Under the pieces are notes generated by a model that saw only the letters and a list, made by a program, of their open reading frames with translations, searched no databases and was not told the origin of the DNA. 64,000 nucleotides of DNA, from the NCBI GenBank assembly GCA_963783885.1, contig CAWAPJ010000029.1, positions 60,430-124,429 of the forward strand, read 5' to 3'. The DNA is from Waddliaceae bacterium. Its GTDB lineage: Bacteria; Chlamydiota; Chlamydiia; Chlamydiales; SLFE01. The position numbers and the translations under genes were made by a program. Shown here piece after piece: positions 2,980 through 28,355 of this stretch (position 1 is the first letter of the stretch; each line of letters begins with the position of its first letter).

Positions 2980-4161
2980 TTATTTGGATAGAACGCAGGC
3001 AAAGCCCCCATCCCAACCATCTTTGTTCGGTAATATGACCTTATGACACAAGCAATTTCCCCACAATCTTTCTTCTTTGACAAGGTTTTGATTCTCGCAG
3101 GGCAGGATGCTGCACGTCATATAGAAAACTCTGCCATGGGGTGTTAATAAATCGAGGGCATGCCTTAAGAGCTTTTTTTGAAGCGAGCGGAGTTCTTCGA
3201 CGGCACAAGAGTTGAGCCTCCAACGGGCTTCAGGCCGTTTGTTGAGCACTCCCGAATTGGTGCAGGGAGCATCGACAATGATAAGATCATAACGATCATC
3301 AGTTGAAAACGTTTCTCCACGGCTGATTGAATAGTCGGCATTGATGCCGTATTTTTCAAAATTTTCCCGTATTTTATTCATCTTGCCTTCCGAAACATCA
3401 TTGACAGTGAGTTTTGCCTGGGGATAAAGATCATGGGCAAGCAGGGCCTTTCCCCCGGGAGAGGCTGCGAGGTCTAAAATGGTCTTGGGAGGTTTTGTCA
3501 AAAAATTAGCCATTTTCCCCATGAGAAGAACTGGGGTGATGTTCTGAATATAAATATCCGGAGATTCGGAATAGTCTTGAGGGTTTTCGATGGGGAAAAC
3601 TTTTAAAGGAGAATCGCTGCCCCGCCTTAGGCGGCCCATCGTTTTGCCGGGGGTATTGCCCGCTTCCAAGGTCGCAATTGTCGTTTGAAGGCCGTATTCT
3701 ACGAGAAGCTGCTGAACATAAAATTTGGTATAGGAATAACGGATGCTGAGGCTTTCGGCATCACTTCCCTGAGGCAGTCTGAACTCTGTATGGGGGATCT
3801 TCTTCAGCACGGCGTTTAAAAAGGAGGCAAACCGGACATGGCACTCTTTTTTTGCCAGCTCGACGCTCTCGTTGACAATGGCGTGCAGAGGAACTTTGTC
3901 CATTTCAAGCGCTTGATAGAGAGCAATATAAAGTAAAGCCCTCTCTTTGCGTTTCAACTTCAGGGTGTCTGAGAGTTGTTTGGCGTAGTGGTCGAGAGTT
4001 TTTTGTTTTCTCATAGCGCCGTTGGCGATTTCTTTTGCGAAACGAAGATCTTTCGAGGAAGGGGCGTCGGATTGTTGCCAGGTCTCAAGAAATGAGGAGA
4101 TAAACTGCTTTTCCCTCATAGATCCGAGAAGAGCTTTGTAGGCCGCTTCTCTTGCATTCAT
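2980..4161 (-). CDS. rsmB: 16S rRNA m5C methyltransferase RsmB/Sun family (NusB-like N-domain plus MTase)
   Basis: MNAREAAY..., AIVNESVELAK, FLNAVL (NusB-like); LDLAASPGGK, DAPCTNSGV, YMTCS; ATGA overlap with the upstream gene. Confidence 0.88.
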   Translation of the reverse strand: MNAREAAYKALLGSMREKQFISSFLETWQQSDAPSSKDLRFAKEIANGAMRKQKTLDHYAKQLSDTLKLKRKERALLYIALYQALEMDKVPLHAIVNESVELAKKECHVRFASFLNAVLKKIPHTEFRLPQGSDAESLSIRYSYTKFYVQQLLVEYGLQTTIATLEAGNTPGKTMGRLRRGSDSPLKVFPIENPQDYSESPDIYIQNITPVLLMGKMANFLTKPPKTILDLAASPGGKALLAHDLYPQAKLTVNDVSEGKMNKIRENFEKYGINADYSISRGETFSTDDRYDLIIVDAPCTNSGVLNKRPEARWRLNSCAVEELRSLQKKLLRHALDLLTPHGRVFYMTCSILPCENQNLVKEERLWGNCLCHKVILPNKDGWDGGFACVLSK

Positions 4162-5045
4162 TTTTTAGTGATCCATTCTCTGACCACCCATTTTTGAAAC
4201 CATTCCGACAGCTTGCCAGCCGAATCCTCGATCCATTCTTCATGCTCTTCTTCAAGAACCGCGCACGCTTCGTCGATAGTCGTACCCTGCTTGAAAAGAT
4301 TGAGAAGAAATAATTCCGGTTCATCAATTTCTTCCCAGCACATGTTGTGTCTAAAGTTGCGGAAAAGGCAAAATGTATACCGTTTTTCTTTGTCAAGTTT
4401 CGGGAAGTCATGCTCTTCCCAATGTTCGGGCTTCTCTTCTAGCATCTCATCGCGGAACTGAAAGAGGTGATAATTAAGGGGGAAAAGATAAATATGGGGC
4501 TGGAGGACGAGACGTTTATTGAGAAGGGAAGAGAACTCATCCGAATTAGGGAGGTCTTTTTGACTCAACGGTGGATTGTGGGGCATTAAAAAGCCGTCAT
4601 TGTAGGCCAGGTCGATTGCTGCGGCGTCATAGACGAATGACTTGTCGTTGTTATGATAGTTGTTTTGGATCCAGTCAGGGAGCCGGCTCCCAAGCGGGTT
4701 TAGCGACCAGCTATCGGGAGGATGGTCCAGCAGGTAGGGCATTGCGATTGTTTGATTAAAATCGAAGTAGCCGAACATGCGTGTGACTAGAGGAAAAATA
4801 TCGTGCAGAATCGACAGCAGGCGCCACCAATATTGCTGGTTGTAGATCTCGATTCTTCTATGGGATTCCAATGTAGGGCTGGGGGTGATAAACTGCTTGG
4901 CCTCTTCTTTCATCGGCTGGCCGGAAGGCGAGAGGGGATTCATGCGGCTGTTTTCATCGATGGGGCGCGCAATAATATTGCCAAACCACTGCTGGGTCAA
5001 CTTCAGAGTGTGGGGAACTGTAGAATCAAAGATTACGTCAGACAT
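4158..5045 (-). CDS. DUF2063-family MNIO partner / RiPP maturation protein (HvfC/BufC-like)
   Basis: RIEIYNQQYWWRLLSIL..FP, YL..HPP.S..L..LG..LP and D.A.IDLAY motifs; overlaps the DUF692 gene. Confidence 0.85.
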   Translation of the reverse strand: MSDVIFDSTVPHTLKLTQQWFGNIIARPIDENSRMNPLSPSGQPMKEEAKQFITPSPTLESHRRIEIYNQQYWWRLLSILHDIFPLVTRMFGYFDFNQTIAMPYLLDHPPDSWSLNPLGSRLPDWIQNNYHNNDKSFVYDAAAIDLAYNDGFLMPHNPPLSQKDLPNSDEFSSLLNKRLVLQPHIYLFPLNYHLFQFRDEMLEEKPEHWEEHDFPKLDKEKRYTFCLFRNFRHNMCWEEIDEPELFLLNLFKQGTTIDEACAVLEEEHEEWIEDSAGKLSEWFQKWVVREWITKK

Positions 5046-5902
5046 TTTTTCAAAGGGGTTTTGCAGTTTTTTTCGATTGCTTTCTGAAATTTTTTCGCTT
5101 TCAGCGCTTCGTCCCAGGTTTCCTGAAAGCTCACAAAGTTATCGTCCCATTCAAGAAGAGTTGAGACGCCCCCTGTTCTTGGATAAACTTCAGCATAGAT
5201 GTCCCAAACCTCATTGCGGACGTAATTATCATGGGTATCGAGAACATAGTCTCCGTGATCGGTGTGTCCGGCGATATGGATCTGGATAACGCGTTCCATC
5301 GGGATATTGTTATAATAATCTTTCGGGACAAATCCGTGGTTTCTGCTGGAAACGTAAATATTATTGACATCGAGCATCATGTAAATGTCGGCTTTTTCCA
5401 CGATCGCCGAATAAAATTCCCATTCGGGCATTTCATCATCTTTGAAAGCGACATATGAAGAGAGATTTTCCAGAGCAAAGGGAAGCTCCAGATAATCCTG
5501 AACAATGCGCGCTCTTTCAGCGACATAATTGATCACTTCCCGGGTATAGGGCAGGGGGAGAAGGTCGTGAAAATGTGCCCCGGCCAGCTTTCCCCAGCAA
5601 AGGTGGTCGGATATCCAAGGGGTTTTGGTTTTAAAGGACAGTTTTTTCAGTCTTTTCAGGTAGTCGAAGTCGAGGGGATCGGGGCTCCCTATGGCTAGGG
5701 CGACGCCATGTTGGACCACGGGATACATTTCGAGGATCCTTTCGAGATTTTCGATGGGTTTTCCTCCGTCGACCATGAAATTTTCGCTGATAATTTCGAA
5801 CCAGTCAACATCCGGTTTATCCCGGAAGATGTCTTCGTAATGGGGAATACGAAGCCCTAGGCCGATACCTAGATTGGGAATCATTTTGTTTGTTTTAGCC
5901 AT
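5033..5902 (-). CDS. DUF692-family multinuclear non-heme iron oxidative enzyme (MNIO; BufB/HvfB-like)
   Basis: GIGLGLR, FEIISENF, QHGV, SDHLCW, DLLPLP, LENLSSY, LDVNNIYVS, QIHIAGH, LDTH, LLEWD: the expected Fe-ligand motifs are present. Confidence 0.95.
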   Translation of the reverse strand: MAKTNKMIPNLGIGLGLRIPHYEDIFRDKPDVDWFEIISENFMVDGGKPIENLERILEMYPVVQHGVALAIGSPDPLDFDYLKRLKKLSFKTKTPWISDHLCWGKLAGAHFHDLLPLPYTREVINYVAERARIVQDYLELPFALENLSSYVAFKDDEMPEWEFYSAIVEKADIYMMLDVNNIYVSSRNHGFVPKDYYNNIPMERVIQIHIAGHTDHGDYVLDTHDNYVRNEVWDIYAEVYPRTGGVSTLLEWDDNFVSFQETWDEALKAKKFQKAIEKNCKTPLKKCLT

Positions 5903-5940
5903 GTCAAAAGCCTATATTAAAACAGCAATAGGAAAAGAGT

Positions 5941-6381
5941 TCAATCTGTTTGAGTTTTTTCCCTTTTTTCAGCCATTTTTTTTGCGACGAGTTTGACTGC
6001 GAGATTTTTGTCTCCGATCGCGCATTTTGTTGTTCCTTTGCATTCGCCTTTGCCGGCACAATCATTGTCTTCGGTTTTGCAGGCATTGAGTCCTTTGCAC
6101 TCGTTAGCACCATTGCACCGTCTGCTGGCAACTTTCAGGGCCAGTTTTTTCCCTTCCGGCGAGAGAGACTCATAAAGCTCTCGTCCTTTTCTATTCAGAT
6201 TGAGGAACAGTTCCTGTTCGCTCATTAAATAATACCCCTCGTTTTCCGAATTGGGATCCTCTTCATATTCGTCGGCTTTACCGGCCGATGTTTCTTTTTC
6301 CTGCCCTTGCAGCGTAGGAGTCATGAATAGTCCCGAGGCTATGCCGATAATGGCCAGCTTTCCAAGATCTCTTTTTTTCAT
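5941..6381 (-). CDS. Secreted Cys-rich RiPP/metallophore precursor, bufferin BufA2-like
   Basis: Start at MKKRDLGKLAIIGIASGLF with an AAGGAG RBS; signal-like N-terminus; 6-Cys core CNGANECKGLNACKTEDNDCAGKGECKGTTKC; immediately upstream of the MNIO. Confidence 0.82.
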   Translation of the reverse strand: MKKRDLGKLAIIGIASGLFMTPTLQGQEKETSAGKADEYEEDPNSENEGYYLMSEQELFLNLNRKGRELYESLSPEGKKLALKVASRRCNGANECKGLNACKTEDNDCAGKGECKGTTKCAIGDKNLAVKLVAKKMAEKREKTQTD

Positions 6382-6401
6382 AACACTTCTCCTTGCCAGA
6401 T

Positions 6402-6434
6402 AAAATATGCGGCCTTTGAAAGACCGCATATTTT
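6402..6434 (-). terminator. Stem-loop between the two precursor genes
   Basis: Minus strand AAAATATGCGGTCTT-TCA-AAGGCCGCATATTTT; the G-U pair works only on the minus strand. Confidence 0.6.
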
Positions 6435-6471
6435 GGGTTAATAGAAAAACTAAATCCTTCCCTTATGGGGA

Positions 6472-6933
6472 TTACAGGCGATATCCATAGGAACCGTTGG
6501 ATCCTCCGCAGCTTCCCCTGTCTTTGCCATTGTTATGGTTGCCGCAGCTTCCCCTGTCTTTGCCATTGTTATTGTTGTTGCTGTTGTCGTGATTTTGATA
6601 TTGGTTGTCCGAATTGTCATGATTTTGGTCATTGTTTCCATTGTCATGATTTTGATCATGGCCGTTCGAATAATTATAATTAGTTTGGCTGTAATTTCCA
6701 TTGGCGTTGTCATAATCTCCGTTATAGCGTCTTGTGCGTCCGTTATTTGTGTTGTCTGCATGTGGGCGGCATTTTTGGGGACATCCCCCTTTTGCCATTT
6801 GCTGGTTGGTTTCATTTCCGGGAATAAAATGCGATGTGTCGGCGCCTGCCTCACCGGAAACAACAAGTCCTGCAGCCATTCCCATCAATGCAAGTTTTGT
6901 GAGTCTGCTTTTTGAAAAATCTCGTTTTTTCAT
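6472..6933 (-). CDS. Secreted Asn/His-rich low-complexity protein with repeated KDRGSCG motifs; probable second MNIO precursor (HvfA-like)
   Basis: MKKRD leader, hydrophobic core and AGA cleavage site; GGCPQKC; QNHDN x3; NNGKDRGSCG x2; AAGGAG RBS. Confidence 0.72.
   Translation of the reverse strand: MKKRDFSKSRLTKLALMGMAAGLVVSGEAGADTSHFIPGNETNQQMAKGGCPQKCRPHADNTNNGRTRRYNGDYDNANGNYSQTNYNYSNGHDQNHDNGNNDQNHDNSDNQYQNHDNSNNNNNGKDRGSCGNHNNGKDRGSCGGSNGSYGYRL
6506..6577 (-). repeat. 36-bp tandem duplication encoding the KDRGSCG unit
   Basis: ccgcagcttcccctgtctttgccattgtt occurs at 6506 and 6542. Confidence 0.9.
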
Positions 6934-7188: not shown

Positions 7189-7605
7189 ATGAGTTTATCT
7201 ATTCAAAAAAGCGATGCTTTTGGTTTTCATACATATAATCAATTTAAAGGAAAGCTGATTTCTATTTCTAACTCCATGGATGTTAACAATCCAATTCTGC
7301 AAGAGGCTGAAAAGAAATTTCAAAAAATTAACCTCGTAAAGAATCTCGTGACCGCCGCAGGCTATATTCCTGTAGTAGGAACTATCGCGGCTATTGCAAA
7401 GCTTGTTTTGATCAATAAGGCTGAAAAAGAAATGTCTAAAGATTCTCGTGGGAGACGATTGAAGCCGTTAGTACAAAACTACTTCACCGGGCAAAAAATC
7501 AGAAGCGGGATTGAGTTGACCTCTCTTGGCTTTCTTTTGCTTATTCCAGACATAATTTTTACTATAGGACGCAATATTGGGAAAAAGCCCGCTGAAGCTA
7601 TATAG
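7189..7605 (+). CDS. Hypothetical protein with two hydrophobic stretches
   Basis: 138 aa ORF with GGGGG RBS; GYIPVVGTIAAIAKL and LGFLLLIPDIIFT segments. Confidence 0.7.
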   Translation: MSLSIQKSDAFGFHTYNQFKGKLISISNSMDVNNPILQEAEKKFQKINLVKNLVTAAGYIPVVGTIAAIAKLVLINKAEKEMSKDSRGRRLKPLVQNYFTGQKIRSGIELTSLGFLLLIPDIIFTIGRNIGKKPAEAI

Positions 7606-9789
7606 TTAGCTGGAGCTGCCTTGTTCGGTTTCCTTTACAAGAAATTGGCATTGGGTTAAAAGAGGGCGATTTTGCAAATGCAAATCATCAGAATACAATA
7701 ATATATCCTTTGCCCAGATTTTAGTCATTTCGTCTTTTTCTTGGATTTTTTTCATTAAATACTGATGACAATCTTCCCGAAGGCTTGGGTCGACGGTGAA
7801 GATATTGCACCAATAGAACTGTTCCTCTACCCAGCACCTTGGGTCATTGAAGAGCTTGAAGTAATCATCGTATTTTTCTGGTGGAATGAATTTGGCTTTA
7901 CCCATCATCTCTTGTTTATTGGGGGATGATAATTCGATAGTTTTTTGGAGGAGATGAGGATAAGCTTTTTCTATGACAGTGCTGCCATAACATTTTAAGT
8001 CGCCAGTTGTGAACTTGACAGCATGAAGAAGTTCCTCAGAATGACGAATTTTTATACCTTTTAAGACTTTAAGTAATGGATCCAGGGTAAACGCAAAAGA
8101 AACGCGGCTAAGATAGTAAAAAATTTTTGGAACAGAGTCTGTATCGTCTAACAAGTCGAAAAGAGGAAAGCAATTTTCTGCAAGGGATCGGTATGCGAAA
8201 AGCTTCGCCGCACTAAATACAAAAGGGAGCTGATAATCATAAATGACATAGTTCTCCAAAAAAACAGAGACAATTGTAATTATATCTGCCAGCTTAGGAT
8301 GATTTTCAGTTTGTCGGTAAGCATTAAGCAAGTCGGCAATTTCGATTCTTTCTGATTCTCCAAGTTTGGAGAAAGTCTTCAGAAACTCATAAAAAGACTC
8401 CAATGTTTTAGTATTCGCAAGGGCACATTTAACAATTTCATATTGTTGATGCATCGGCAGTTGTAATAGAGCATTGAGATACTGTTCAAGGGGTCTTCCT
8501 CCTGGGAAGTAGAACCGCCCAAGTATCGTGGTTGCTTCCGGATTGATCTTGCCGGCCAGCCGTTTCATAAGATCTAAAGTATTCATGATCTGAGAAGCTG
8601 TTTTACATCGGCCTGCAAAACAGGCAGCTAACTTGATCACCTCTAGAGGGTAGTCGATCAGGTTTTTGAAAATGGAGCGTATGTCAACGCTTTCATGAAT
8701 CATAAATGATCGGACAGCTTCAGAAAATCGAGGTCTGTCTTTTAAGGGTACTTTTCGAAAATCTTCGATCAAAGAGGCGGATTGACTATAAATCGAAAAG
8801 CATCTGCTTTGCTCCCTTTCTTCGGGAGGAAATTTTTCGATGGTTTGGAGAAGGTGGCAAATATACCATCCGTCCATAGAGTTATACAAAAGTTCGGCGG
8901 TATGCACCACAACATCCTCAGGATCGACTTCGCTTTTTAACTGATTAATGACTGTCATAATTTCAGCGGCATCTCTTCCCGGCAAACGGTCATGGATCAG
9001 TTGTGATGCCAGGGCAAGTGTCTTTCGCCTTGTTTCTTTCGGCAATTTCACGGCTGCCTCGAGAAGGAAGACGACATCGCCTCCACGCATCTTCTCACGA
9101 ATGACCTTCGAAGTACTAATTTCTGAGATGACTTTTCGATTCTCCAATTGGTCGACAGCTGCCATGATTTTAGCGACATCGCTTCCAGACATACATTTAT
9201 GGGTGAGTTGAGATGTCAGAGCAAGTGTATTTTTCCTTGTGCCTCTCGGCAATTTCAAGGCTGCTTTGAGAATTTCTTTGACATCCTCTCCATTCATGTT
9301 CTGATGAATGACAGGCCGAATAGCGATTGCAGCATTGACGTTTTCTCCCGACTGGTAACCAAAAAGAATATTCAGATTTAGAAAAAAAGATTGATAATTC
9401 CAGTGATAGTTCGGCATGTCACGAACTGCGTGGATGATAGTTTCTAAATCACCCCGTGTCATGCACATTGAGATTAATGGAGCGGCAAGATCAGCAATGG
9501 CTTTGTCTGGATTCCTTCGGTGAGACAGTAAAATCATCAACGAAAGTTGATTAATTTTAATGGTTAACTCGCATTTCTTAATTTTAGTGATGTTTCGGTT
9601 AATCAGTAGAAGGCAGTCGACATGTTCCGGGGTGAAGCTTATAGGATGATTATTTATCCATTGATCAAGTTTGTCGAAAATGCTTTGAAAATCGTTTTGA
9701 GTTTGTAGAATTCGGCTAAAATCTTCGATTTGAGTAGCTGTCGATAGTTGAAGAAGTGTTGTACCAAAATCCATGCCGGAAGTGTACAT
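7606..9789 (-). CDS. Hypothetical 727-aa helical-repeat protein
   Basis: Long ORF; degenerate ~36-38 aa repeats (IHQNMNGEDVKEIL, THKCMSGSDVAKIM, IREKMRGGDVVFLL, IHDRLPGRDAAEIM). Confidence 0.8.
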   Translation of the reverse strand: MYTSGMDFGTTLLQLSTATQIEDFSRILQTQNDFQSIFDKLDQWINNHPISFTPEHVDCLLLINRNITKIKKCELTIKINQLSLMILLSHRRNPDKAIADLAAPLISMCMTRGDLETIIHAVRDMPNYHWNYQSFFLNLNILFGYQSGENVNAAIAIRPVIHQNMNGEDVKEILKAALKLPRGTRKNTLALTSQLTHKCMSGSDVAKIMAAVDQLENRKVISEISTSKVIREKMRGGDVVFLLEAAVKLPKETRRKTLALASQLIHDRLPGRDAAEIMTVINQLKSEVDPEDVVVHTAELLYNSMDGWYICHLLQTIEKFPPEEREQSRCFSIYSQSASLIEDFRKVPLKDRPRFSEAVRSFMIHESVDIRSIFKNLIDYPLEVIKLAACFAGRCKTASQIMNTLDLMKRLAGKINPEATTILGRFYFPGGRPLEQYLNALLQLPMHQQYEIVKCALANTKTLESFYEFLKTFSKLGESERIEIADLLNAYRQTENHPKLADIITIVSVFLENYVIYDYQLPFVFSAAKLFAYRSLAENCFPLFDLLDDTDSVPKIFYYLSRVSFAFTLDPLLKVLKGIKIRHSEELLHAVKFTTGDLKCYGSTVIEKAYPHLLQKTIELSSPNKQEMMGKAKFIPPEKYDDYFKLFNDPRCWVEEQFYWCNIFTVDPSLREDCHQYLMKKIQEKDEMTKIWAKDILLYSDDLHLQNRPLLTQCQFLVKETEQGSSS

Positions 9790-9906: not shown

Positions 9907-10791
9907 ATGAAAACAAGACACCTTGTCACTCTGCTTCTAGTTTCAGGTTTCATCCTGCTTTCCATTCTCATTATGCAGCCAATGGAAATGGTTGGAGGCT
10001 ACAAGTATATCGACATCCTGTTTCCCGAGGGAGTCATAGGTTGGAAACAGCTGGAACTTCTGCTCATCATTCAAGGAGTCATGCTCGCAGTTGTCATTCC
10101 CGTCTTCATCCTCACATACTATTTCTCCTGGAAATACAGGGCGGGAAACACGAAAGCCAGACATGATCCTGATTTTGACCACCACCCTGCCGCTGAATAT
10201 ATTTGGTGGGGTGTTCCCTGCATCATTGTTCTGATTATAGGTATCCTCACCTGGATCAGAACGCATCAATTAGATCCCTATAGGCCCATTGACTCTCCAA
10301 AAAAAGCGCTAGTCGTCCAGGCGGTCGCTTTGCAGTGGAAGTGGTTGTTCATCTACCCAGAGGAAAAAATTGCCAGCGTCAACTTTCTACATATTCCTAA
10401 GGATACCCCGATTCATTTTGAAGTCACCGCAGACGCTCCCATGAATTCGTTGTGGATTCCTAAACTGGGAGGACAAATTTATGCCATGCCTAAAATGAAA
10501 ACAGAACTCTATCTGATAGCTGATGAAGTCGGAGATTTCAGAGGTTCTTCGGCCAACATCAGCGGCAAAGGATTTGCGGGCATGCATTTTATCACACGCT
10601 CTTCATTAGAAGACGATTTTCAAAATTGGGTGGAGGCGGCAAAGCAGTCGGAAAAGGCCTTAACTGCAAAAGAATACGATCGATTAGCCGCTCCCAGCCA
10701 GAACAACCCTGTAGAGTCCTATCGCTTAGAAGATGAGAACCTTTTCGAACAGATTATCATGAAATACATGCCCCCAAAGAAAAGAGGATAA
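9907..10791 (+). CDS. cyoA: Cytochrome bo3-type quinol oxidase subunit II
   Basis: LDPYRP, WKWLFIYPE, MNSLWIP.LGGQIYAM, SANISGKGFAGM; no CuA ligands. Confidence 0.93.
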   Translation: MKTRHLVTLLLVSGFILLSILIMQPMEMVGGYKYIDILFPEGVIGWKQLELLLIIQGVMLAVVIPVFILTYYFSWKYRAGNTKARHDPDFDHHPAAEYIWWGVPCIIVLIIGILTWIRTHQLDPYRPIDSPKKALVVQAVALQWKWLFIYPEEKIASVNFLHIPKDTPIHFEVTADAPMNSLWIPKLGGQIYAMPKMKTELYLIADEVGDFRGSSANISGKGFAGMHFITRSSLEDDFQNWVEAAKQSEKALTAKEYDRLAAPSQNNPVESYRLEDENLFEQIIMKYMPPKKRG

Positions 10792-10794
10792 GAT

Positions 10795-12768
10795 ATGTTT
10801 GGCAGATTAACTCTTGGAGCATTCGATCACGAAATTACTCAAAATCTTGCTGTCATCTCGATGGCAGTCATCGGCATTGGGCTTATCGGACTTATAACCT
10901 ACCTCAAACGGTGGAAATGGCTTTGGAATGAATGGCTGACAACCGTCGATCCCAAAAAAATCGGTATCATGTATATCGTCGTCGTCCTTCTGATGTTCCT
11001 GAAAGGGTTTTCCGATGCCCTGATGATGCGCATTCAGCAAGCACTCGCCGTAGGAGATTCTCAGGGCTTTATTTCCGCGACCCATTTTCAGGAAGTTTTT
11101 TCCGCTCATGGGACAACGATGATTTTCTTTGTCGGCATGGGATTTGTCTTTGGTATCATGAACCTCATAGTCCCCTTGCAAATCGGAGCTAGAGATGTCG
11201 CCTTCCCGTTTTTAAACGCTTTGGGTTTCTGGCTGTTTGCGGGGGCGGGATCTCTGCTTCTCATCTCCCTTGCTATCGGTCAATTTACGATAGCGGGGTG
11301 GCTTGCTTATCCTCCTTTGTCCGGACTGGAATACAGCCCCAATGAAGGAGTCGACTATTGGATATGGATGCTGCAGATAGCGGGGGTGGGCAGTACTATT
11401 TCTGCGATCAACTTTTTAGTTACCATCCTCAAAATGCGTTGTCCGGGCATGACGCTTTTTAGAATGCCCATCTTTGTCTGGAGCGCCCTTTGCGCCACGA
11501 TTCTCATTATTTTTGCCTTCCCCATTCTGACAGCGACGCTCTATTTGCTCACGCTGGACCGCTACCTCGGTATGCACTTTTTCACTGCGGGAGGCGGAGG
11601 AAACCCTATGATGTATGTCAACCTGATCTGGGCTTGGGGCCATCCGGAAGTTTATATTTTGATCATGCCGGTGTTCGGCATCTTTTCCGAAGTGGTGCCC
11701 ACCTTCTCGGAAAAACGATTGTTTGGATATGTCTCGATGGTCCTGGCCCTTGGATTGATTACATTCCTCTCATTCATTGTCTGGGTGCACCACTTCTTTA
11801 CGATGGGGGCAAGCCCTAATGTCAACGCGTTTTTCGGGTTTATGACCATGCTCATCGCGATTCCCACGGGAGTCAAAATATTCAACTGGCTGTTTACGAA
11901 ATTTCGAGGAAGGATTCATTTCTCATCGCCAATGCTATGGTTTTTTGCTTTTGTGCTCAATTTTACCATAGGGGGAATGACGGGAGTCTTGCTTTCATCG
12001 CCTCCGGTCGACTATCAAGTCCACAACAGCCTGTTTTTGATTGCCCATTTCCACGGCATGGTCATTGGCGGGGTGCTCTTCGGCTTTTTTGCGGGATTTA
12101 CCTATTGGTTTCCCAAGTACACAGGATTTTTTCTCGATGAAAAATGGAATATGTCAGCTTTTTGGTGCTGGTTCAGCGGTTTTTTGCTTGCGTTCATGCC
12201 CCTTTATATGCTGGGATTTATGGGAGCGACAAGGCGCCTCAACCATTACGACGCCTCTACCGGTTGGCATCCGCTGTTTTTGGTAGCGGCCGTAGGGGCA
12301 TTTATTATTTTGTGTGGAGCCAGCATCCAGTTTTTGGGTCTCTTTTGGAGCATTAAAGAGCGCAAAAAGAACCGCGACACCTCTGGAGGCGACCCTTGGA
12401 ATGGCCGTACCCTCGAGTGGTCTCTTCCATCCCCTCCTCCCATCTATAATTTCGCTATCATTCCCAATGTGAACGATGTCGACCCGGTGTGGGAAATGAA
12501 ACGGGGCCTTGCCCCTCCGCAAAAAAAGGAATACGAAGATATCCATATACCGAAAAACACCCCACTTGGAATTTATATTGGGGGCTTGTGCATAGCTTTC
12601 GGCTTTGCTATGACCTGGTATATCTATTGGCTGGCAATCATCAGTTTCGTCGGAGTTATCGGGTGCCTGATTTACCGCCTCTCCCGAAAAGACGTGTACG
12701 AGGTGATCATGAAAGAAGAGGTCAAGGAGATAGAAGACTCCCTCTCGAGGAGGCGTGAATTGGCATGA
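10795..12768 (+). CDS. cyoB: Quinol oxidase subunit I (heme-copper)
   Basis: TTVDPKKIGIMY, AHG, WAWGHPEVY, VWVHHFF, AHFH. Confidence 0.97.
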   Translation: MFGRLTLGAFDHEITQNLAVISMAVIGIGLIGLITYLKRWKWLWNEWLTTVDPKKIGIMYIVVVLLMFLKGFSDALMMRIQQALAVGDSQGFISATHFQEVFSAHGTTMIFFVGMGFVFGIMNLIVPLQIGARDVAFPFLNALGFWLFAGAGSLLLISLAIGQFTIAGWLAYPPLSGLEYSPNEGVDYWIWMLQIAGVGSTISAINFLVTILKMRCPGMTLFRMPIFVWSALCATILIIFAFPILTATLYLLTLDRYLGMHFFTAGGGGNPMMYVNLIWAWGHPEVYILIMPVFGIFSEVVPTFSEKRLFGYVSMVLALGLITFLSFIVWVHHFFTMGASPNVNAFFGFMTMLIAIPTGVKIFNWLFTKFRGRIHFSSPMLWFFAFVLNFTIGGMTGVLLSSPPVDYQVHNSLFLIAHFHGMVIGGVLFGFFAGFTYWFPKYTGFFLDEKWNMSAFWCWFSGFLLAFMPLYMLGFMGATRRLNHYDASTGWHPLFLVAAVGAFIILCGASIQFLGLFWSIKERKKNRDTSGGDPWNGRTLEWSLPSPPPIYNFAIIPNVNDVDPVWEMKRGLAPPQKKEYEDIHIPKNTPLGIYIGGLCIAFGFAMTWYIYWLAIISFVGVIGCLIYRLSRKDVYEVIMKEEVKEIEDSLSRRRELA

Positions 12769-13361
12769 ATGAATCTGTAGCCGTTTATCCCGATCCTTAC
12801 CAGGATGTCTATTCCAAAAACACATTGGGCTTTTGGTTTTATCTGATGACCGATTGTATGGTCTTTACCACACTCTTTGTGACTTATGCAGTTCTTAAAA
12901 GTAATACCTTTGGCGGTCCCTCGTCAAATGACCTTTTCAGTTTGAGCACAGCTTTTGCCGAGACGATGATCCTTTTATGCAGCAGCGTTACGTGCGGCTT
13001 CGGACTGCTCTCTTCATTGAAAAATGATAAGAAAAAAGTAGTTTTTTGGCTTGCGGTCACATTTTTGCTGGGAGCAGCTTTCATCGCCCTCGAGCTGAAT
13101 GAATTTTCTCATTTTATCTTGGAAGGCAACAGCTTTACAAGAAGCGCTTTTTTATCCTCCTTCTTTACCCTTGTCGGCACCCACGGCTTGCATGTTTCTG
13201 TCGGCTTGCTATGGATGGCGGTGATGATCGTGCAGGTGTCTTTGCTCGGGATTACACTCGATACTTTTCGAAGGCTGATGATTTTTGGCATGTTCTGGCA
13301 TTTTCTTGATTTGGTGTGGATCTTCATATTCACTTTTGTCTATTTAATAGGAGTCATATAA
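12765..13361 (+). CDS. cyoC: Quinol oxidase subunit III
   Basis: GFWFYLMTDC, FFTLVGTHGLHV, FWHFLDLVW. Confidence 0.95.
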   Translation: MNESVAVYPDPYQDVYSKNTLGFWFYLMTDCMVFTTLFVTYAVLKSNTFGGPSSNDLFSLSTAFAETMILLCSSVTCGFGLLSSLKNDKKKVVFWLAVTFLLGAAFIALELNEFSHFILEGNSFTRSAFLSSFFTLVGTHGLHVSVGLLWMAVMIVQVSLLGITLDTFRRLMIFGMFWHFLDLVWIFIFTFVYLIGVI

Positions 13362-13362
13362 A

Positions 13363-13701
13363 ATGAGTGAACATCTGAGTCTGGAGGAGACCCAAAAAGA
13401 ATGGCCCGGAACCCTCCGCTCTTACTTGATCGGATTTTCCTCTTGCATCGTCTTGACAGGAATCTCCTTTCTGCTTGTCGGATTGAAGCTATTGTCCGGC
13501 AATATTTTGATAGGCACCATTGTCGCACTGGCTCTAGTGCAGGCGATTTGCCAGCTGCTTTTCTTTCTTCATTTGGGACATGAAGAGAAACCTCACTGGA
13601 AGACCCTTATTTTCTACTGTATGCTGATGATTCTTTTAATTATCGCCATCGGGTCTTTATGGATTATGTTTGATTTAAAAACACGGGTGATGCCGGGATA
13701 G
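13363..13701 (+). CDS. cyoD: Quinol oxidase subunit IV
   Basis: SYLIGF, QLLFFLHL, GSLWIM; operon position. Confidence 0.92.
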   Translation: MSEHLSLEETQKEWPGTLRSYLIGFSSCIVLTGISFLLVGLKLLSGNILIGTIVALALVQAICQLLFFLHLGHEEKPHWKTLIFYCMLMILLIIAIGSLWIMFDLKTRVMPG

Positions 13702-13705
13702 ATTT

Positions 13706-14554
13706 ATGATTAATTATTATCTTCTGACAAAACCGGGAATTATTCTGGGAAATCTGATTACCGTAACAGCGGGTTTTTTGCTGGCGGCAAACGGAAATAT
13801 TGATTTTAAATTATTTTTTGCAACCTTGATCGGCCTTGCGTTTATCATCGCTTCCGCCTGTGTTTTTAACAATTATATCGACCGTCAAACCGACAAAAAA
13901 ATGGAGAGGACGAAAAACCGGCCGCTTGTCACAGGCCTCATCTCCGGACGTCATGCCATTGTCTTTGCCACTTTTCTTGGGATACTCGGCAACATTGTCC
14001 TCTTTTCATGGACCAACCTCTTGGCAGTACTCGCAGCAGACCTTGGTTTTCTCATTTATGTTGTCCTCTATAGTTTTTGGAAATGCCATACAATTTATGG
14101 CACGGCAATTGGAAGTCTTGCGGGAGCCGTTCCACCGGTTGTCGGTTATTTAGCCGCCAGCGGCCGCTTTGATGCAGGAGCCATCATTTTGTTTTCCATG
14201 CTGATACTGTGGCAGATGCCCCACTTCTTTTCGATCGCTATCTATCACCTGGAGGATTATACCTTAGCGGGAATTCCGGTGCTGCCGGTCATCAAAGGGA
14301 TCCCGAGAACAAAAGTCCATATGGCGCTTTATATCCTCGGCTTTATTGCGGCTTCTTTGATGCTCACCTTTTTGAATTATACAGGGTATATCTACTTCAT
14401 TGTGACGACAATCATCGGCCTGGCTTGGCTTGGCCTTGGACTTAAGGGATTTCGTTGTGCCAATCACACGCTTTGGGGCAGGGACATGTTCCGCCTGTCA
14501 CTGTTGATGATAAGCGCCATTTGCCTGGCAATCTTTTTTGATGCGAGTGTCTAG
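13706..14554 (+). CDS. cyoE: Heme o synthase (protoheme IX farnesyltransferase)
   Basis: TKPGII.GN, NNYIDR..DKKMERTKNRP, WQMPHF. Confidence 0.95.
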   Translation: MINYYLLTKPGIILGNLITVTAGFLLAANGNIDFKLFFATLIGLAFIIASACVFNNYIDRQTDKKMERTKNRPLVTGLISGRHAIVFATFLGILGNIVLFSWTNLLAVLAADLGFLIYVVLYSFWKCHTIYGTAIGSLAGAVPPVVGYLAASGRFDAGAIILFSMLILWQMPHFFSIAIYHLEDYTLAGIPVLPVIKGIPRTKVHMALYILGFIAASLMLTFLNYTGYIYFIVTTIIGLAWLGLGLKGFRCANHTLWGRDMFRLSLLMISAICLAIFFDASV

Positions 14555-24023: not shown

Positions 24024-25856
24024 ATGTGCGGGATAGCAGCCTTGTTCGGCCTGGGCAATGATTTAAGCGTTATCGATGAAATGACCGATATCGCAAGCCA
24101 CCGGGGCCCTGATGATCGGGGAGTGCAGCTGTTCCAGGGAGCCGCTTTAGGGCATCGCCGCCTCTCCATTCTCGATTTAACCGAGCATGGCCATCAGCCA
24201 ATGGCCTCTCATTGCGGCAGGTTTCATATTGTTTACAACGGCGAGATTTACAATTACAAAGAACTCAAAAGGGAGCTTGAAGGAAAAGGAGTCTGCTTTT
24301 CTTCTCATTCGGATACAGAAGTTCTCCTAAACGCCTTTTGCGAGTGGGGGAAGGATTGCCTTCACAAGCTGAACGGGATGTTCGCTTTTGTCATTTATGA
24401 CAAAGAGCAAAGACGTTTTTTTGCCGCAAGGGACCGCTTTGGCATCAAGCCTCTTTATTACTGGATTTCCCCTGCAGGGCTGATCGCTTTCGCATCGGAA
24501 ATCAAGCAATTTACCGCTCTTGAAGGATGGAGGCCCAGACTGAATCATCAGCTTGCCTATGATTTTCTCAATTGGGGGGTTCACGACCACACATCCGGAA
24601 CTCTGTTTTCCGGTGTGAACCAATTGAGAGGGGGTGAATATGCCCAAGGATCAATTGGCGAGTCTGAAATTTGCCCAAAAAAATGGTACGTTTTAAAAAC
24701 CCGGGGTCTAAAGATGTCCCCCGATGAAATCGCCAAGACTTATAGAGAGCTCCTTGCCGATTCGATAAGGCTGAGGCTAAGGGCTGATGTCTCGATCGGC
24801 TCCTGTCTTTCGGGAGGGCTCGATTCCTCCTCGATCGTCTGTCTGGTCGCAAAACAGCTACAATCACAGCAGGCAGCAGAGAAGCAGAAGACATTTTCCG
24901 CCTGTTCTCATGTTGAGCGGTTCGATGAAAAACGGTTTATCGACATCGTGATCGAAAAAACGGGGCACCGGGCGCACTTTATCTATCCGGATATCGAAGA
25001 TCTTTTTCGCGAGCTTGACTCCATCATATGGCATCAGGACGAACCGTTTGGTTCAACCAGTATTTTTGCCCAGTGGGAGGTATTCAAGCTGGCAAAAAGG
25101 GAGCAGACAAAAGTTCTTCTCGACGGACAGGGGGCCGATGAGCAGCTTGGAGGGTATACGTCCTCATACGGTTTTCATTTTTATAATCTCTATCGCTGCA
25201 TGAGGTGGTTAAAACTGTGGCAGGAAATGAGGCTTTCCCGGCCGACTCTTGGTTCGACGCTTCCTTTTAAGATGCTCGGAGCAAGAGTTTTGCCTGAAGT
25301 GGTGAAGCGTCCGCTTAGCAAGCTGTATCGACGGCCGGCAAGACGTCCCGAATGGTTGAATTTAAACATTCTCTTAGCAGATGACGTCTCGCCGTTTTTG
25401 TCTTTAGAAAGAAGCGGGCTGAAAGATTATTGCCAAACGATGATCGCCTCGTCCAGCCTGCCGATGCTTCTCCATTATGAAGACCGCGACTCTATGGCAT
25501 CATCAGTCGAGGCGAGGACGCCGTTTCTCGATTACCGGCTTGTGGAATTTGTTTTGGATCTTCCTTCCGAATGGCTGCTCGATCAGGGGACAACCAAAAG
25601 AGTTTTGCGCGAAGCTATGAAAGGGATCCTTCCTTCGGAGATTCTCGCCCGGCGGGATAAGATCGGCTTTGCCACTCCCGAAGAGGTGTGGGCTCGCCAT
25701 CCCGGCTTCTGCCATCTTCTTGAACAAGGGATCGCTTGTTCACAAGGGATGGTTACCCCTTCAGTCCTTAGTGATTTTGGGAGGGTGTTTACGGCTCGGT
25801 ATTGGCGTATCATTAGTTTTGGCAGGTGGATGGAGCTTTTCAAAGTGAGGCTTTAG
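24024..25856 (+). CDS. asnB: Asparagine synthase (glutamine-hydrolysing)-like amidotransferase
   Basis: MCGI start with AAGGAG RBS; HRGPD, GHRRLSILD, YNGEIYN, SGGLDSS, DGQGADE, EARTPFLD. Confidence 0.9.
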   Translation: MCGIAALFGLGNDLSVIDEMTDIASHRGPDDRGVQLFQGAALGHRRLSILDLTEHGHQPMASHCGRFHIVYNGEIYNYKELKRELEGKGVCFSSHSDTEVLLNAFCEWGKDCLHKLNGMFAFVIYDKEQRRFFAARDRFGIKPLYYWISPAGLIAFASEIKQFTALEGWRPRLNHQLAYDFLNWGVHDHTSGTLFSGVNQLRGGEYAQGSIGESEICPKKWYVLKTRGLKMSPDEIAKTYRELLADSIRLRLRADVSIGSCLSGGLDSSSIVCLVAKQLQSQQAAEKQKTFSACSHVERFDEKRFIDIVIEKTGHRAHFIYPDIEDLFRELDSIIWHQDEPFGSTSIFAQWEVFKLAKREQTKVLLDGQGADEQLGGYTSSYGFHFYNLYRCMRWLKLWQEMRLSRPTLGSTLPFKMLGARVLPEVVKRPLSKLYRRPARRPEWLNLNILLADDVSPFLSLERSGLKDYCQTMIASSSLPMLLHYEDRDSMASSVEARTPFLDYRLVEFVLDLPSEWLLDQGTTKRVLREAMKGILPSEILARRDKIGFATPEEVWARHPGFCHLLEQGIACSQGMVTPSVLSDFGRVFTARYWRIISFGRWMELFKVRL

Positions 25857-27059
25857 AAATTCAACAATCTGGAGGGCAGTGATGCGTTCTTCCCTTTTCA
25901 GCTTCCAGCAGCGCCACAGAAGATATTTTAGGATATCGTCCTCGGGGGGTTCTTTCATTTGTTTGAGATATGCTTCGAGGTTGCTTCGATATTGCCTATA
26001 GGCGTATTCCAGTTTGTAACGCATCTGATACTTGTAGGCTTCTTGAAATCTATCGGCATCTTTCAACCATGCGGGTTCTTTCTCTCCGAGAAGCCTATAG
26101 ATGACCCAGCCAAGGCTCCAAATATCCATAGCAAATGGATTGGCTATAAATTTATTGTAAAGTTCCGGGTAAAAGAAGTGTTCAAAGAGCTCGGGAGGCC
26201 AGTAGCCAATTGTTCCTCCGATGCCGAGTGCAACTTTTACTTGAGTCAAGTGGCGCGCTTGTCCGAAGCCGTCAAGTTTGACGACTATGCGCCCTTCTAT
26301 AAGAGAAATCAGAGTATTTTCAACGCTTACATTGCCGTGAAGGTCTCCTCTGGAGTGCATATGATGGAGCAGGCCGGCAATTTGATAGACGATCGAAAGT
26401 TTATCCTGCAGAGACAAAGGTATTTCCTTGTCTTTGATGACATCGAACAAATCACGCTGCAGCAGTTCGCTGATTTCCATATGCTTTACATGAGCTTGTT
26501 TCTTGATAGTTCCGATATAGGGAAATTCATGGAAAAGTTTGGGAATCTGCGCACTTTGATATTTTTTTCGATATGTCATTTCCCTATCGATCCTGTTTAG
26601 CTCTATTGACCCGTCTCGGTTAGGAAGACAAATAGATTTGGTTTTTTTTATCAGAAGAGTTAATTGAGGCTTGTCCGAAAAATCAAAACAGAGCATGGGT
26701 TTGAAGCTTTTTTCCGAAGGATTTTTAGGGTCTTTTTTCTTGAGTCCAATTTTAGAAAGATATCCAAAAGCCTCGCGGAAGTTTTCGCTGATGATTGAAA
26801 GATTGCCGTTGATTCTGTCGATATCGGCTGTTTTCAGCATAATGCAGAGCTTTTTTTCTTGCGGAAGAACAATGCAGGTTCTTTTTATTTGCTTTTCAAG
26901 CCTATTGAAGACAATCGGATCTTCATTGTCTTCAATACTTACTGTTCTTTGGTAGAGATTGTAAATTCTTTTGAAGTCCGGTTGATTGAGCTGGGGTAAA
27001 AGGAGGCCTGCTAGACGATAAAATTCGTCAAAAGTTTTCGGCGGTTGATTACAGACCAT
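25761..27059 (-). CDS. Ser/Thr protein kinase-fold protein, probable pseudokinase
   Basis: HGNVSVEN (catalytic loop), LDGFG, GT.GYWPPE, DIWSLG, RERITA. Confidence 0.8.
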   Translation of the reverse strand: MVCNQPPKTFDEFYRLAGLLLPQLNQPDFKRIYNLYQRTVSIEDNEDPIVFNRLEKQIKRTCIVLPQEKKLCIMLKTADIDRINGNLSIISENFREAFGYLSKIGLKKKDPKNPSEKSFKPMLCFDFSDKPQLTLLIKKTKSICLPNRDGSIELNRIDREMTYRKKYQSAQIPKLFHEFPYIGTIKKQAHVKHMEISELLQRDLFDVIKDKEIPLSLQDKLSIVYQIAGLLHHMHSRGDLHGNVSVENTLISLIEGRIVVKLDGFGQARHLTQVKVALGIGGTIGYWPPELFEHFFYPELYNKFIANPFAMDIWSLGWVIYRLLGEKEPAWLKDADRFQEAYKYQMRYKLEYAYRQYRSNLEAYLKQMKEPPEDDILKYLLWRCWKLKREERITALQIVEFLKPHFEKLHPPAKTNDTPIPSRKHPPKITKD

Positions 27060-27065
27060 AGGACA

Positions 27066-28355
27066 TCACACAATGTATCGTTCCCACGCGCCATAGCGTT
27101 CTTTAATTTTGCCGCGGGGGAAGGTTAACGCAATCAAAAGCAACCCTACAATAATGTGGCTTATCAGTCCACCCCCATGAGAAAAGAAGAGCAAAAAGAA
27201 AGCAAAAATCCCGAAAAACAGATTGATAAAACGTGCCGCTCTGACCACTTCTGCCATGGAAATGATGGAGATGGCCACGACCAAAGCTCCGATAATGTGG
27301 TCCAGATCTCCCACTAGTTTCGGCTCGTCCAGAACATGCGGCGAAAACATCAGCCAAAGTCCCAGGATCGCTGTTAACCACAGGTTCCAGGGGAAGCTTA
27401 TCCCCCAAATCATCGAGCCTGCCATTTTATACGAAGCGACAGAAGGGGTTCTGCTGTCGGTTTCTTCACCCTCGGCATGGCCGCCGCGCCAAAAGACTTT
27501 TGAGAAGTTTCCTTTCTTTTTCGCTTGGTGGAGAAAGTGGAGGACAGCGATCACTTCATCGATGGCAAGAGCAATCATAAAGAGCATGCACACTGCGGTG
27601 AGCAGGCACCAGAAGCACCAGTGGCCAACCATAATCGGCTGAAGCATAATCAGCACAATGCTTGTAAAACCGAGAGGAACGACCAGGATCGCAAAAAGAA
27701 CAACGAACCAAGGGATTGTATGCCATCTTTTCACCCCTCCATGCGCTCCCATAAGAGTTTCTATTGTGTAGGCCATAGCGCCAAGCCCTGCGTCAGCAAC
27801 AGGAAATTCTTTTGACACTGTAGACGTAATCACATCCCGGGTGCCGTTTCCAAAGACAGGGTCGTAGACGTTGTCCAGGTATCCCAGCTGATAGCAGGCC
27901 ATGTAGCGGGCGAACATCCAGGCAAAGAATCCCAGGAAGATAATCGGAATTCTTTGCGGCCAGGAAGAGGGGTTGTAGGACCACCCTTCGGGAATTGAAG
28001 CGCCCCCCACAGCCTCTTCGATGGGGTCTCTAGGGATGAGTACGGCAAGAGCGATCACTAAAGCGCCTACAAGAGTATCATTCAAATAGGTAACCGCCTC
28101 AGGAGCCCAGAAAGCAAGCGGAGCGAACTGCAGCCAAACCGCGACAACCGACAGGGCCCATCTTGGCCATATTTGCCTGAAGGTGAGGTCGTAGAGGCTG
28201 ATCACAATCAGCAGGATTCCGCAGACAATATCGCTCACAGCCATCGGCAGGCTGTGCTGCGTGAATGAAAAGGTGCAGGCGATCAGCCAAAGCCCCAGTC
28301 CGATAACCGCATAATGGGTCCAGAAACTTTTATTTTGATGTAAATTATTTTGCAT
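27066..28355 (-). CDS. Vitamin K epoxide reductase (VKOR)-family membrane protein with SPW repeats
   Basis: GWSYNPSSWPQR, FPVADAGLG, WCFWC CxxC motif, flanking G.WL...P repeats. Confidence 0.82.
   Translation of the reverse strand: MQNNLHQNKSFWTHYAVIGLGLWLIACTFSFTQHSLPMAVSDIVCGILLIVISLYDLTFRQIWPRWALSVVAVWLQFAPLAFWAPEAVTYLNDTLVGALVIALAVLIPRDPIEEAVGGASIPEGWSYNPSSWPQRIPIIFLGFFAWMFARYMACYQLGYLDNVYDPVFGNGTRDVITSTVSKEFPVADAGLGAMAYTIETLMGAHGGVKRWHTIPWFVVLFAILVVPLGFTSIVLIMLQPIMVGHWCFWCLLTAVCMLFMIALAIDEVIAVLHFLHQAKKKGNFSKVFWRGGHAEGEETDSRTPSVASYKMAGSMIWGISFPWNLWLTAILGLWLMFSPHVLDEPKLVGDLDHIIGALVVAISIISMAEVVRAARFINLFFGIFAFFLLFFSHGGGLISHIIVGLLLIALTFPRGKIKERYGAWERYIV

Follow-up and report, generated by a model that had tools for sequence, protein, structure and literature searches.

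A probable heterotypic precursor set in a bufferin/captophorin-type operon of a Waddliaceae-like chlamydia

INTRODUCTION

Copper-binding modified peptides of the bufferin and captophorin kind form a very large class that has been described only recently. Here, we analyze a locus in which an MNIO (DUF692) enzyme gene and its DUF2063 partner gene lie behind two small genes, A and B, in a 64,000-nt stretch of DNA from a Waddliaceae bacterium (contig CAWAPJ010000029.1 of assembly GCA_963783885.1; hereafter, the window). The closest described systems are BufA2-BufB2-BufC2 of Caulobacter vibrioides (Buf_6/12Cys, "Cys-Lys" captophorins), on the one hand, and oxazolin (HvfABC, Haemophilus influenzae) and fontiphorin (FonABC), "Lys-Cys" captophorins with EGKCG repeats, on the other. 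In the available text of PMC13097082, MNIO-DUF2063 systems are sorted by precursor into DUF2282, Lys-Cys (EGKCG), and Cys-Lys (BufA2) groups; the selectivity residues are Arg15/Arg16 and Phe250 of FonB, with Asp replacing Phe in Cys-Lys enzymes, and the acidic residue after the catalytic Asp is proposed to be the partner of the Lys following the Cys. The same text gives two Cys repeats as the minimal FonBC substrate and describes FonBC selectivity around the Cys as class specific, with no Pro tolerated. For Buf2 of Caulobacter, the available text of PMC11626156 reports that the four central Cys carry a −4 Da change and that the first and last probably form a disulfide. An earlier reading of the window from its sequence (hereafter, the original prediction) had set the chemistry of oxazolin against that of bufferins. 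This contrast is outdated: according to the text available from PMC13097082 and 10.64898/2026.07.17.739211, the modification in oxazolin is now assigned as 5-thiooxazoles, which bufferins carry as well, and therefore the two contrasted "classes" share one chemistry.

Published surveys, as far as their text is available, center on Pseudomonadota, and no precursor was found in the chlamydial genomes tabulated there. In the available part of the genome table of PMC12452194 (Antoine et al. 2025), Protochlamydia amoebophila and Waddlia chondrophila are listed with MNIO and DUF2063 and with 0 Buf1, 0 Buf2, and 0 Buf_EGKCG. The string "Chlamydi" is absent from the main text of PMC12452194 and of PMC13097082, and in the one passage available from the literature that combines DUF692 with chlamydia, the phylum group is only listed. 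The available text of Antoine et al. also notes "BGCs with tandem precursor genes" (BGC, biosynthetic gene cluster) and fused bufferin domains.

The window locus resembles the Caulobacter system in having a BufB-model MNIO, a DUF2063 partner, and no DoxX gene; as in bufferin 2 (available text of PMC11626156 and PMC13097082), it has a six-Cys precursor of the C-K-G type with a Sec signal and an acidic residue after the catalytic Asp. Unlike in bufferin 2, protein B scores below the BufA2 cutoff (30.8 versus 60 bits), its core is framed by conserved helices that are absent from the 79-position model, another candidate precursor gene of a different type lies ahead of B, rsmB is coupled to the partner gene, and no SigF/NrsF-type regulator was seen. 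Like the precursors of oxazolin and fontiphorin, A is an exported, Gly-rich, probably unstructured Cys-repeat protein encoded next to an MNIO-DUF2063 pair; unlike them, it has no EGKCG, no Lys-Cys, and no match to a hidden Markov model (HMM), and it carries one Cys doublet and a long low-complexity tail rather than 17-residue repeats, and the window enzyme is without the RR and Phe determinants. With the tandems of PMC12452194, the locus shares the notion that a single MNIO may act on two or more substrates and that chimeras can include bufferin domains; however, heterotypic tandems and doublet-BufA2 fusions are not described in the available text of that paper. A relationship may exist between the A-like proteins described below and the "adjamnio-3" family of that paper (unstructured, Sec signal, PME type 1). 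Altogether, we conclude that this Waddliaceae-like chlamydia has a bufferin/captophorin-type operon, probably with two unlike precursors, of which A would be the second substrate.

RESULTS

All coordinates refer to the window, and the four studied genes and rsmB are all on the minus strand, in the order A, hairpin, B, MNIO, DUF2063, rsmB. Re-deriving the open reading frames (ORFs) confirmed four co-oriented genes. Gene A (6472-6933; 153 amino acids) encodes an exported low-complexity protein, the candidate second precursor; gene B (5941-6381; 146 amino acids from its MKKRD start), a BufA2-like precursor; the third gene (5033-5902; 289 amino acids), an MNIO of BufB type and Cys-Lys class; and the fourth (4158-5045; 295 amino acids), a DUF2063 partner (PME type 1, BufC/HvfC-like), which overlaps the MNIO gene by 13 nt. 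In both small genes, the ATG is closely preceded by a Shine-Dalgarno-like AGGAG; in gene B, AAGGAG lies 7-8 nt upstream of the ATG at 6381, and relatives of B begin at MKK. An ORF for B that starts farther upstream, at 6429, was rejected in favor of 6381 because the ATG at 6429 sits within the hairpin. The closest named record is a Waddliaceae metagenome-assembled genome (MAG), the MNIO of which is 94% identical to that of the window; because of this record, the label "chlamydial-type" that the host had been given is correct. The original prediction that a chlamydial genome here carries a bufferin-type operon with MNIO and DUF2063 is supported. It also spoke of a single MNIO, and just one was found in the source genome (2.16 Mb, 88.9% complete). 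DoxX genes, of which there is none at the locus, were found at two places elsewhere in this genome.

In HMM searches, which had been suggested as a check, the MNIO passed the PF05114 and BufB models, the partner passed PF09836, B matched BufA2 below the cutoff, and A matched no HvfA model; the gene families and the class of the enzyme are shown directly. Specifically, the MNIO scored 343.6 bits with PF05114 (gathering score 25) and 319.9 bits with the NCBIfam BufB model NF050167, above the equivalog cutoff of 310, and fell below the cutoff of the HvfB model NF003818 (242.9 versus 360 bits). Ten residues (H65, H100, E145, D178, N181, H209, D222, H224, E251, and D253) are invariant in 35 chlamydial MNIOs and align with 3BWW and MbnB. 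Three of them, N181, D222, and H224, align to N175, D242, and H244 of HvfB, which are essential according to the text available on that enzyme, substitution inactivating it. The catalytic and iron-site residues are, as had been claimed, present; the remaining invariant residues are putative Fe ligands, a role that derives from work on MbnB. The partner scored 45.8 bits with PF09836 (threshold 27.2); for a possible C-terminal RRE-like domain, NGO1945_C gave 20.8 bits (cutoff 27) and the HvfC model 23.2 bits (cutoff 142).

At the selectivity positions, the window MNIO has R18-I19 and E251-W-D253-D254. Thus, it has an acidic residue at the position of FonB Phe250 and no second Arg at the position of FonB Arg16, and by both published determinants, it is assigned from its sequence to the Cys-Lys class. 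Because it has R18-I19 and E-W-D-D instead of RR and ERDF, the enzyme suits B rather than an HvfA-type substrate. RR and ERDF are found at these positions in 3BWW, an HvfB-like structure, and in the MNIO of locus L021 from a different chlamydial genome, G032. This locus is a genuine HvfA/HvfB-type locus with an EGKCGEGKCG precursor, an MNIO 37% identical to that of the window, a DUF2063 gene, and a DoxX-like gene (DoxX recognized by eye from the translation). A homotypic contrast is provided by L043 from a Micavibrio MAG, where two tandem genes for four-Cys precursors (DUF2282-like, as judged by eye) lie upstream of an MNIO that is 40% identical to that of the window. Genome G022, from the same order as the window, has five MNIO paralogs that are 50-59% identical to the window enzyme.

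Gene B encodes a signal (judged by eye), an acidic linker, a helical flank, a six-Cys core, and a C-terminal helix. Against the BufA2 model NF050166 (cutoff 60), it scored 30.8 bits over residues 84-118, corresponding to profile positions 28-62 of 79; seven relatives and fusions scored 30-39 bits, and one double-domain relative scored 71.9. The core (6022-6117, minus strand) has C89, C95-K, C101-K, C108-A, C114-K, and C120. C89, C95, C101, C108, and C114 are invariant in 14 aligned B-type sequences, which have in common the pattern C-x5-CKG-x3-C-x6-CAG-x3-CKG, a conserved helical flank that leads into the core, and a helix that follows the core. B has the traits of the BufA2/Buf_6/12Cys group, i.e., six conserved Cys with Cys-Lys dyads, a Sec signal (again by eye), and a gene adjoining those for MNIO and DUF2063. 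With the conserved six-Cys CKG-type pattern and the core match, sub-cutoff as it is, the description of B as BufA2-like stands. In a structural model of B, residues 55-85 and 125-145 are helical at pLDDT 75-95 (means of 10-residue blocks) and the core is of low confidence. The last 96 codons differ from those of the congener (genome G001) by 23 synonymous-only and 3 nonsynonymous changes. None of the 223 relatives of B in the protein collection has a name beyond "hypothetical" or "putative secreted," and all sources that are named are chlamydial.

The source genome has a second, BufA2-like gene, B2 (L044:2232-2645, equal to G000:C29:55231-55644; plus strand), which lies 5.2 kb before the start of the window. 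It encodes 137 amino acids with five Cys, carries the same N-terminal signature as A and B, and is unlinked to any MNIO. Its neighbors are an ADP/ATP-translocase-like gene and a convergent aldehyde-dehydrogenase-like gene (both recognized by eye from the translation). G001 and G021 also have an unlinked second copy of B. B and B2 are almost certainly cognate Cys-Lys-type substrates of the MNIO, and by analogy to Buf2, the four central Cys of the CKG core of B are probably modified.

The 31 N-terminal residues of A (6841-6933, minus strand) form a Sec-type signal with the signature MKKRD..KLALMGMAAGL and A29-G30-A31 before D32, the cleavage site being read from the sequence by rule of thumb. 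A has four Cys: two in the doublet C51-P-Q-K-C55 (GGCPQKC; 6769-6783, minus strand) and C130 and C142 in two GSCG motifs, which stem from a 36-nt tandem duplication (6506-6577, minus strand) that encodes two 12-residue units ending in GKDRGSCG. TRF describes this duplication with period 36, 2.0 copies, and 97% matches. The congener carries one copy of the unit. Short contigs from two public DNA runs (two studies) join both copies, and contigs from four DNA runs are identical to the window and broken at the repeat. The Cys occur only as S-C-G and G-C-P, and both a Lys-Cys dyad and an EGKCG unit are lacking. Asn makes up 25% of the mature part, which is also rich in Gly, Asp, and His, and a single-sequence model, which is weak evidence, has a mean pLDDT of 45.6 and no secondary structure. 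Compared with the congener, codons 1-75 include 52 identical, 15 synonymous-only, and 8 nonsynonymous ones.

A had been called HvfA-like. As a family assignment, this does not hold: no Pfam or NCBIfam model matches A, the HvfA models NF050137 and NF050188 included even at E ≤ 10, A has neither Lys-Cys nor EGKCG, and the MNIO lacks RR and D-F. The best score for A in the ESM Atlas was 0.76, which is below the meaningful level, and a word-based search with residues 1-80 returned only A itself, whereas the profile search described below did find relatives. Conservation of the motif (G/S)RTRRY at residues 63-67 (window 6733-6747) is confined to the family of the window, with A-type proteins from the window itself, G001, G003, and G004. 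We also considered reading the "LLAGxC" motif as a lipoprotein signal and rejected it, as the motif lies ∼15 residues past the predicted cleavage site and the residue before the Cys is often K or S.

The N terminus of A connects it to B, as had been proposed: BLASTP of A against B gives 13/26 identities over the shared N terminus (E 5e-5), and when all six frames of the 2.16-Mb genome are scanned, a degenerate N-terminus pattern, itself derived from A, B, B2, and their kin, has no match beyond these three genes. We defined the A-type family by the MKK..LALxGxAxGL N terminus and a Cys doublet at about residues 40-55, both of which the window protein has. In 15 aligned A-type N termini, the MKK..LALxGxAxGL signal is followed ∼15 residues on by a hydrophobic-Ala-x-Gly stretch and then by the doublet, and M1, C51, and C55 are invariant. 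Among 25,450 segments of the source genome, a leave-out profile, built from 12 A-type N termini of other families without that of the window, placed A at the top (E 1.7e-8), followed by B2 and then B; no further segment scored below E 2. Run against 1.84 billion representative proteins, the A-type N-terminal profile matched 366 clusters at E ≤ 0.001; among the best 150 of these, 146 have C-x2-6-C at residues 30-70, 29 a B core, and 24 both. Of ten clusters looked up, three come with an organism, which is a chlamydia in every case; another member bears the name "uncharacterized low-complexity protein." Sequence comparison places A in a large unannotated chlamydial family of predicted disordered, exported proteins in which the signal peptide is closely followed by a Gly-flanked Cys doublet; the lineage of the window has further C-terminal Cys.

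MNIO was found in 22/41 relatives and in 91/301 genomes of a phylum-wide sample, each of the 91 having a single copy at E ≤ 1e-60; in the same sample, 30 genomes from a family with a genome size of ∼1.1 Mb gave no MNIO. The B profile matched in 68/300 chlamydial genomes, 65 of which were also MNIO positive (lists compared by eye). We classified the 3 kb upstream of MNIO loci using an HMM-based script, after leaving out the copies of the window, L021 and L043 (other MNIO classes), non-MNIO loci, duplicates, and two loci without a readable MNIO start. This gave 107 distinct loci, of which 10 were cut by contig ends and 97 were informative; the script misses L037, which has a degenerate core, and counts the frameshifted L039 as two genes. 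A-type and B-type genes lie side by side in 26/97 loci; a doublet and a B core are fused in one ORF in 7/97, and a doublet is fused to a B flank without the core in another 7/97. A-like genes only were found in 17/97, B only in 24/97, and no precursor was recognized in 16/97. Homologous MNIO loci, thus, keep both kinds of small gene, and the outcome that the original prediction had named as a refutation, their absence from such loci, did not occur. Among environmental chlamydiae, A-B pairing is seen repeatedly, in some cases within a single fused gene. In the star-like MNIO tree, the starred branches require at least three changes for the A+B state and at least two for the fusions. Among the loci with A-like genes only is that of G004, a 98% complete genome in which B was not found with the profile.

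By our own, loose rules for a "signal-like" start and a doublet, a same-strand upstream ORF with both is present in 57 of the 97 loci, which are kin rather than independent; as a control, 24/1947 signal-like segments of the whole genome carry such a doublet. In 66 doublet-bearing ORFs adjoining MNIO genes, the median position of the first doublet is residue 46, and 51 have it at residues 35-60. In L012, L030, and five more loci, the doublet and the B-type helical flank are kept and the CKG core is lost. In L039 (594-2392), a long A-type ORF runs on in another frame into a helical flank and a B core; either a frameshift has disrupted an A-B fusion here or the 3.9-Mb contig is misassembled.

The residue after the catalytic Asp is D or E in 57/57 loci with a B core, which fits the proposed pairing of an acidic residue with the Lys. 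In the 40 loci without a B core, it is D in 32, A, S, T, or N in 7, and unreadable in 1; Phe does not occur. Based on these residues, A-only loci appear mostly to keep a Cys-Lys-type active site.

A 15-bp stem with an A-run/U-run lies between A and B (6402-6434, minus strand). Its fold has a z score of −3.4, and 0/200 shuffles were as good; a consensus terminator scan did not list it, and it was found by folding the region. A hairpin of unrelated sequence lies between the A-type and B-type genes in 4/4 relatives tested. In three of these, 0/200 shuffles were as good, and in L036, 7/200 were (z −1.9); one relative has an 11-bp stem followed by U9, i.e., a textbook terminator. We read the A-B hairpin as a putative attenuator or terminator after gene A.

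DISCUSSION

By analogy to the described systems, the iron enzyme and its DUF2063 partner would oxidize precursor Cys to 5-thiooxazoles before Sec export; the signal peptide would then be removed, and the products would bind copper in the periplasm. Our data favor the view, which we hold to be the more probable one, that the single enzyme also acts on A, a second substrate that differs from B in structure. The synteny, the natural fusions, and the A-only loci strengthen the case that the MNIO matures A as well as B, and the Cys doublet of A fits the minimal FonBC substrate of two Cys repeats. By comparison with other RiPP (ribosomally synthesized and posttranslationally modified peptide) operons, the hairpin after A would set a higher ratio of A to enzyme transcript, and the N-terminal segment common to A, B, and B2 may serve recognition besides export. 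Taken to its full extent, this reading gives a tentative model: the Cys-Lys MNIO/DUF2063 pair might place thiooxazoles on the helix-held CKG Cys of B and B2 as well as on the Gly-flanked doublets of disordered A, in many chlamydiae on one fused chain, with the family-specific N-terminal segment acting as a Sec signal and a shared recognition element. As a whole, this model is more speculative than the statement that A is a substrate.

Several points weigh against A as a substrate. No precursor model matches it; the MNIO is of the Cys-Lys class by both published determinants; C51 is followed by Pro, while FonBC, according to the available text of PMC13097082, tolerates no Pro; and A of the congener has a single C-terminal Cys. 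Chief among these points are the class-specific selectivity of FonBC, which is the one enzyme for which this was tested, and the Pro after C51. Moreover, A is not obligatory because 24/97 loci have B only and 16/97 have no recognizable precursor. The rules behind the doublet count are our own and loose, the loci compared are related by descent, and the degenerate signature pattern stems from the proteins that it recovers and their kin. Finally, the hairpin could equally mark A as a separate transcription unit.

Alternatively, only B and B2 are modified and A is a co-located, exported low-complexity protein that works unmodified, an explanation that we regard as possible and yet rather doubtful. 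Such a protein might be a metal sink, using its Cys pairs and a His/Asp/Asn-rich stretch, or an envelope or spacer protein acting with the bufferin. The Cys-Lys-class residues of the MNIO fit B and not A, and the missing model match, the Pro after C51, and the single C-terminal Cys in G001 are as expected for an unmodified protein, as are the hairpin that parts A from the enzyme genes and the richness of mature A in N, D, and H. It is harder to explain in this way why the A-only loci (17/97, including that in the 98% complete genome in which no B was found) keep an intact MNIO and partner, why the doublet alone is invariant in a protein that is not conserved elsewhere, and why the fusions put it on the same chain as a B core.

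It is quite improbable that A is functionally unrelated to the operon, i.e., an independently transcribed neighbor kept by descent. The terminator-like hairpin after A and the lack of a family assignment would agree with such a neighbor; however, A-type genes lie upstream of MNIO in lineages for which the MNIO tree is star-like, with at least three changes for the A+B state, the doublet is enriched far above the genome background, the N-terminal signature of A is common to B and B2 only, and gene fusions exist. That A is a true HvfA/oxazolin-family (Lys-Cys, EGKCG) precursor is the least probable explanation: despite its Gly-flanked Cys, the 15.6 bits that the A-type protein of one relative (GKCGAGKCGG) scored on NF050137 (cutoff 19.5), and the one member named "uncharacterized low-complexity protein," the window protein has no match at E ≤ 10 and neither Lys-Cys nor EGKCG, the enzyme fails the HvfB model (242.9 < 360) and is without RR and D-F, and the genuine HvfA/HvfB-type locus L021 looks different.

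New in our analysis is that about one-third of the sampled chlamydial genomes (91/301) carry one such enzyme, that the substrates adjoining it, with A as a candidate, fall into two unannotated families of hundreds of clusters each, and that the two families have repeatedly been fused in nature. If a Cys-Lys-class enzyme does modify A-type doublets, the rule that links active-site residues to the Cys context needs widening, and these loci would be a natural test case for the choice of Cys by captophorin enzymes. A role in the intracellular life of amoeba-associated chlamydiae is plausible because, according to the available text of PMC11626156, amoebae use copper against ingested bacteria and bufferins slowed the killing of Caulobacter by Dictyostelium.

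Downstream, the operon appears to end with rsmB (2980-4161, minus strand), which encodes a 16S rRNA m5C methyltransferase with NusB and RsmB-F domains. Its start overlaps the DUF2063 stop by 4 nt, and we regard it as the translationally coupled last gene of the transcription unit; the rsmB-DUF2063 junction is identical or closely spaced in L003, L004, L006, L017, and L020. On the other side, two genes beside the operon encode proteins with no family match, one of 138 amino acids with a hydrophobic stretch (7189-7605, plus strand) and one of 727 amino acids (7606-9789, minus strand). Farther away, at 25764-27059, 29782-31221, and 27069-28355 (minus strand), are genes for two Ser/Thr protein-kinase-domain proteins and an SPW-repeat/VKOR-domain protein. 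About 3 kb upstream of gene A and on the opposite strand, a heme-copper quinol-oxidase operon begins (9907-14551, plus strand), which encodes subunit II with COX_ARM, COX1, COX3, COX4_pro, and a UbiA-type heme O synthase; a copper-dependent enzyme is, thus, encoded near the presumed copper-buffering operon.

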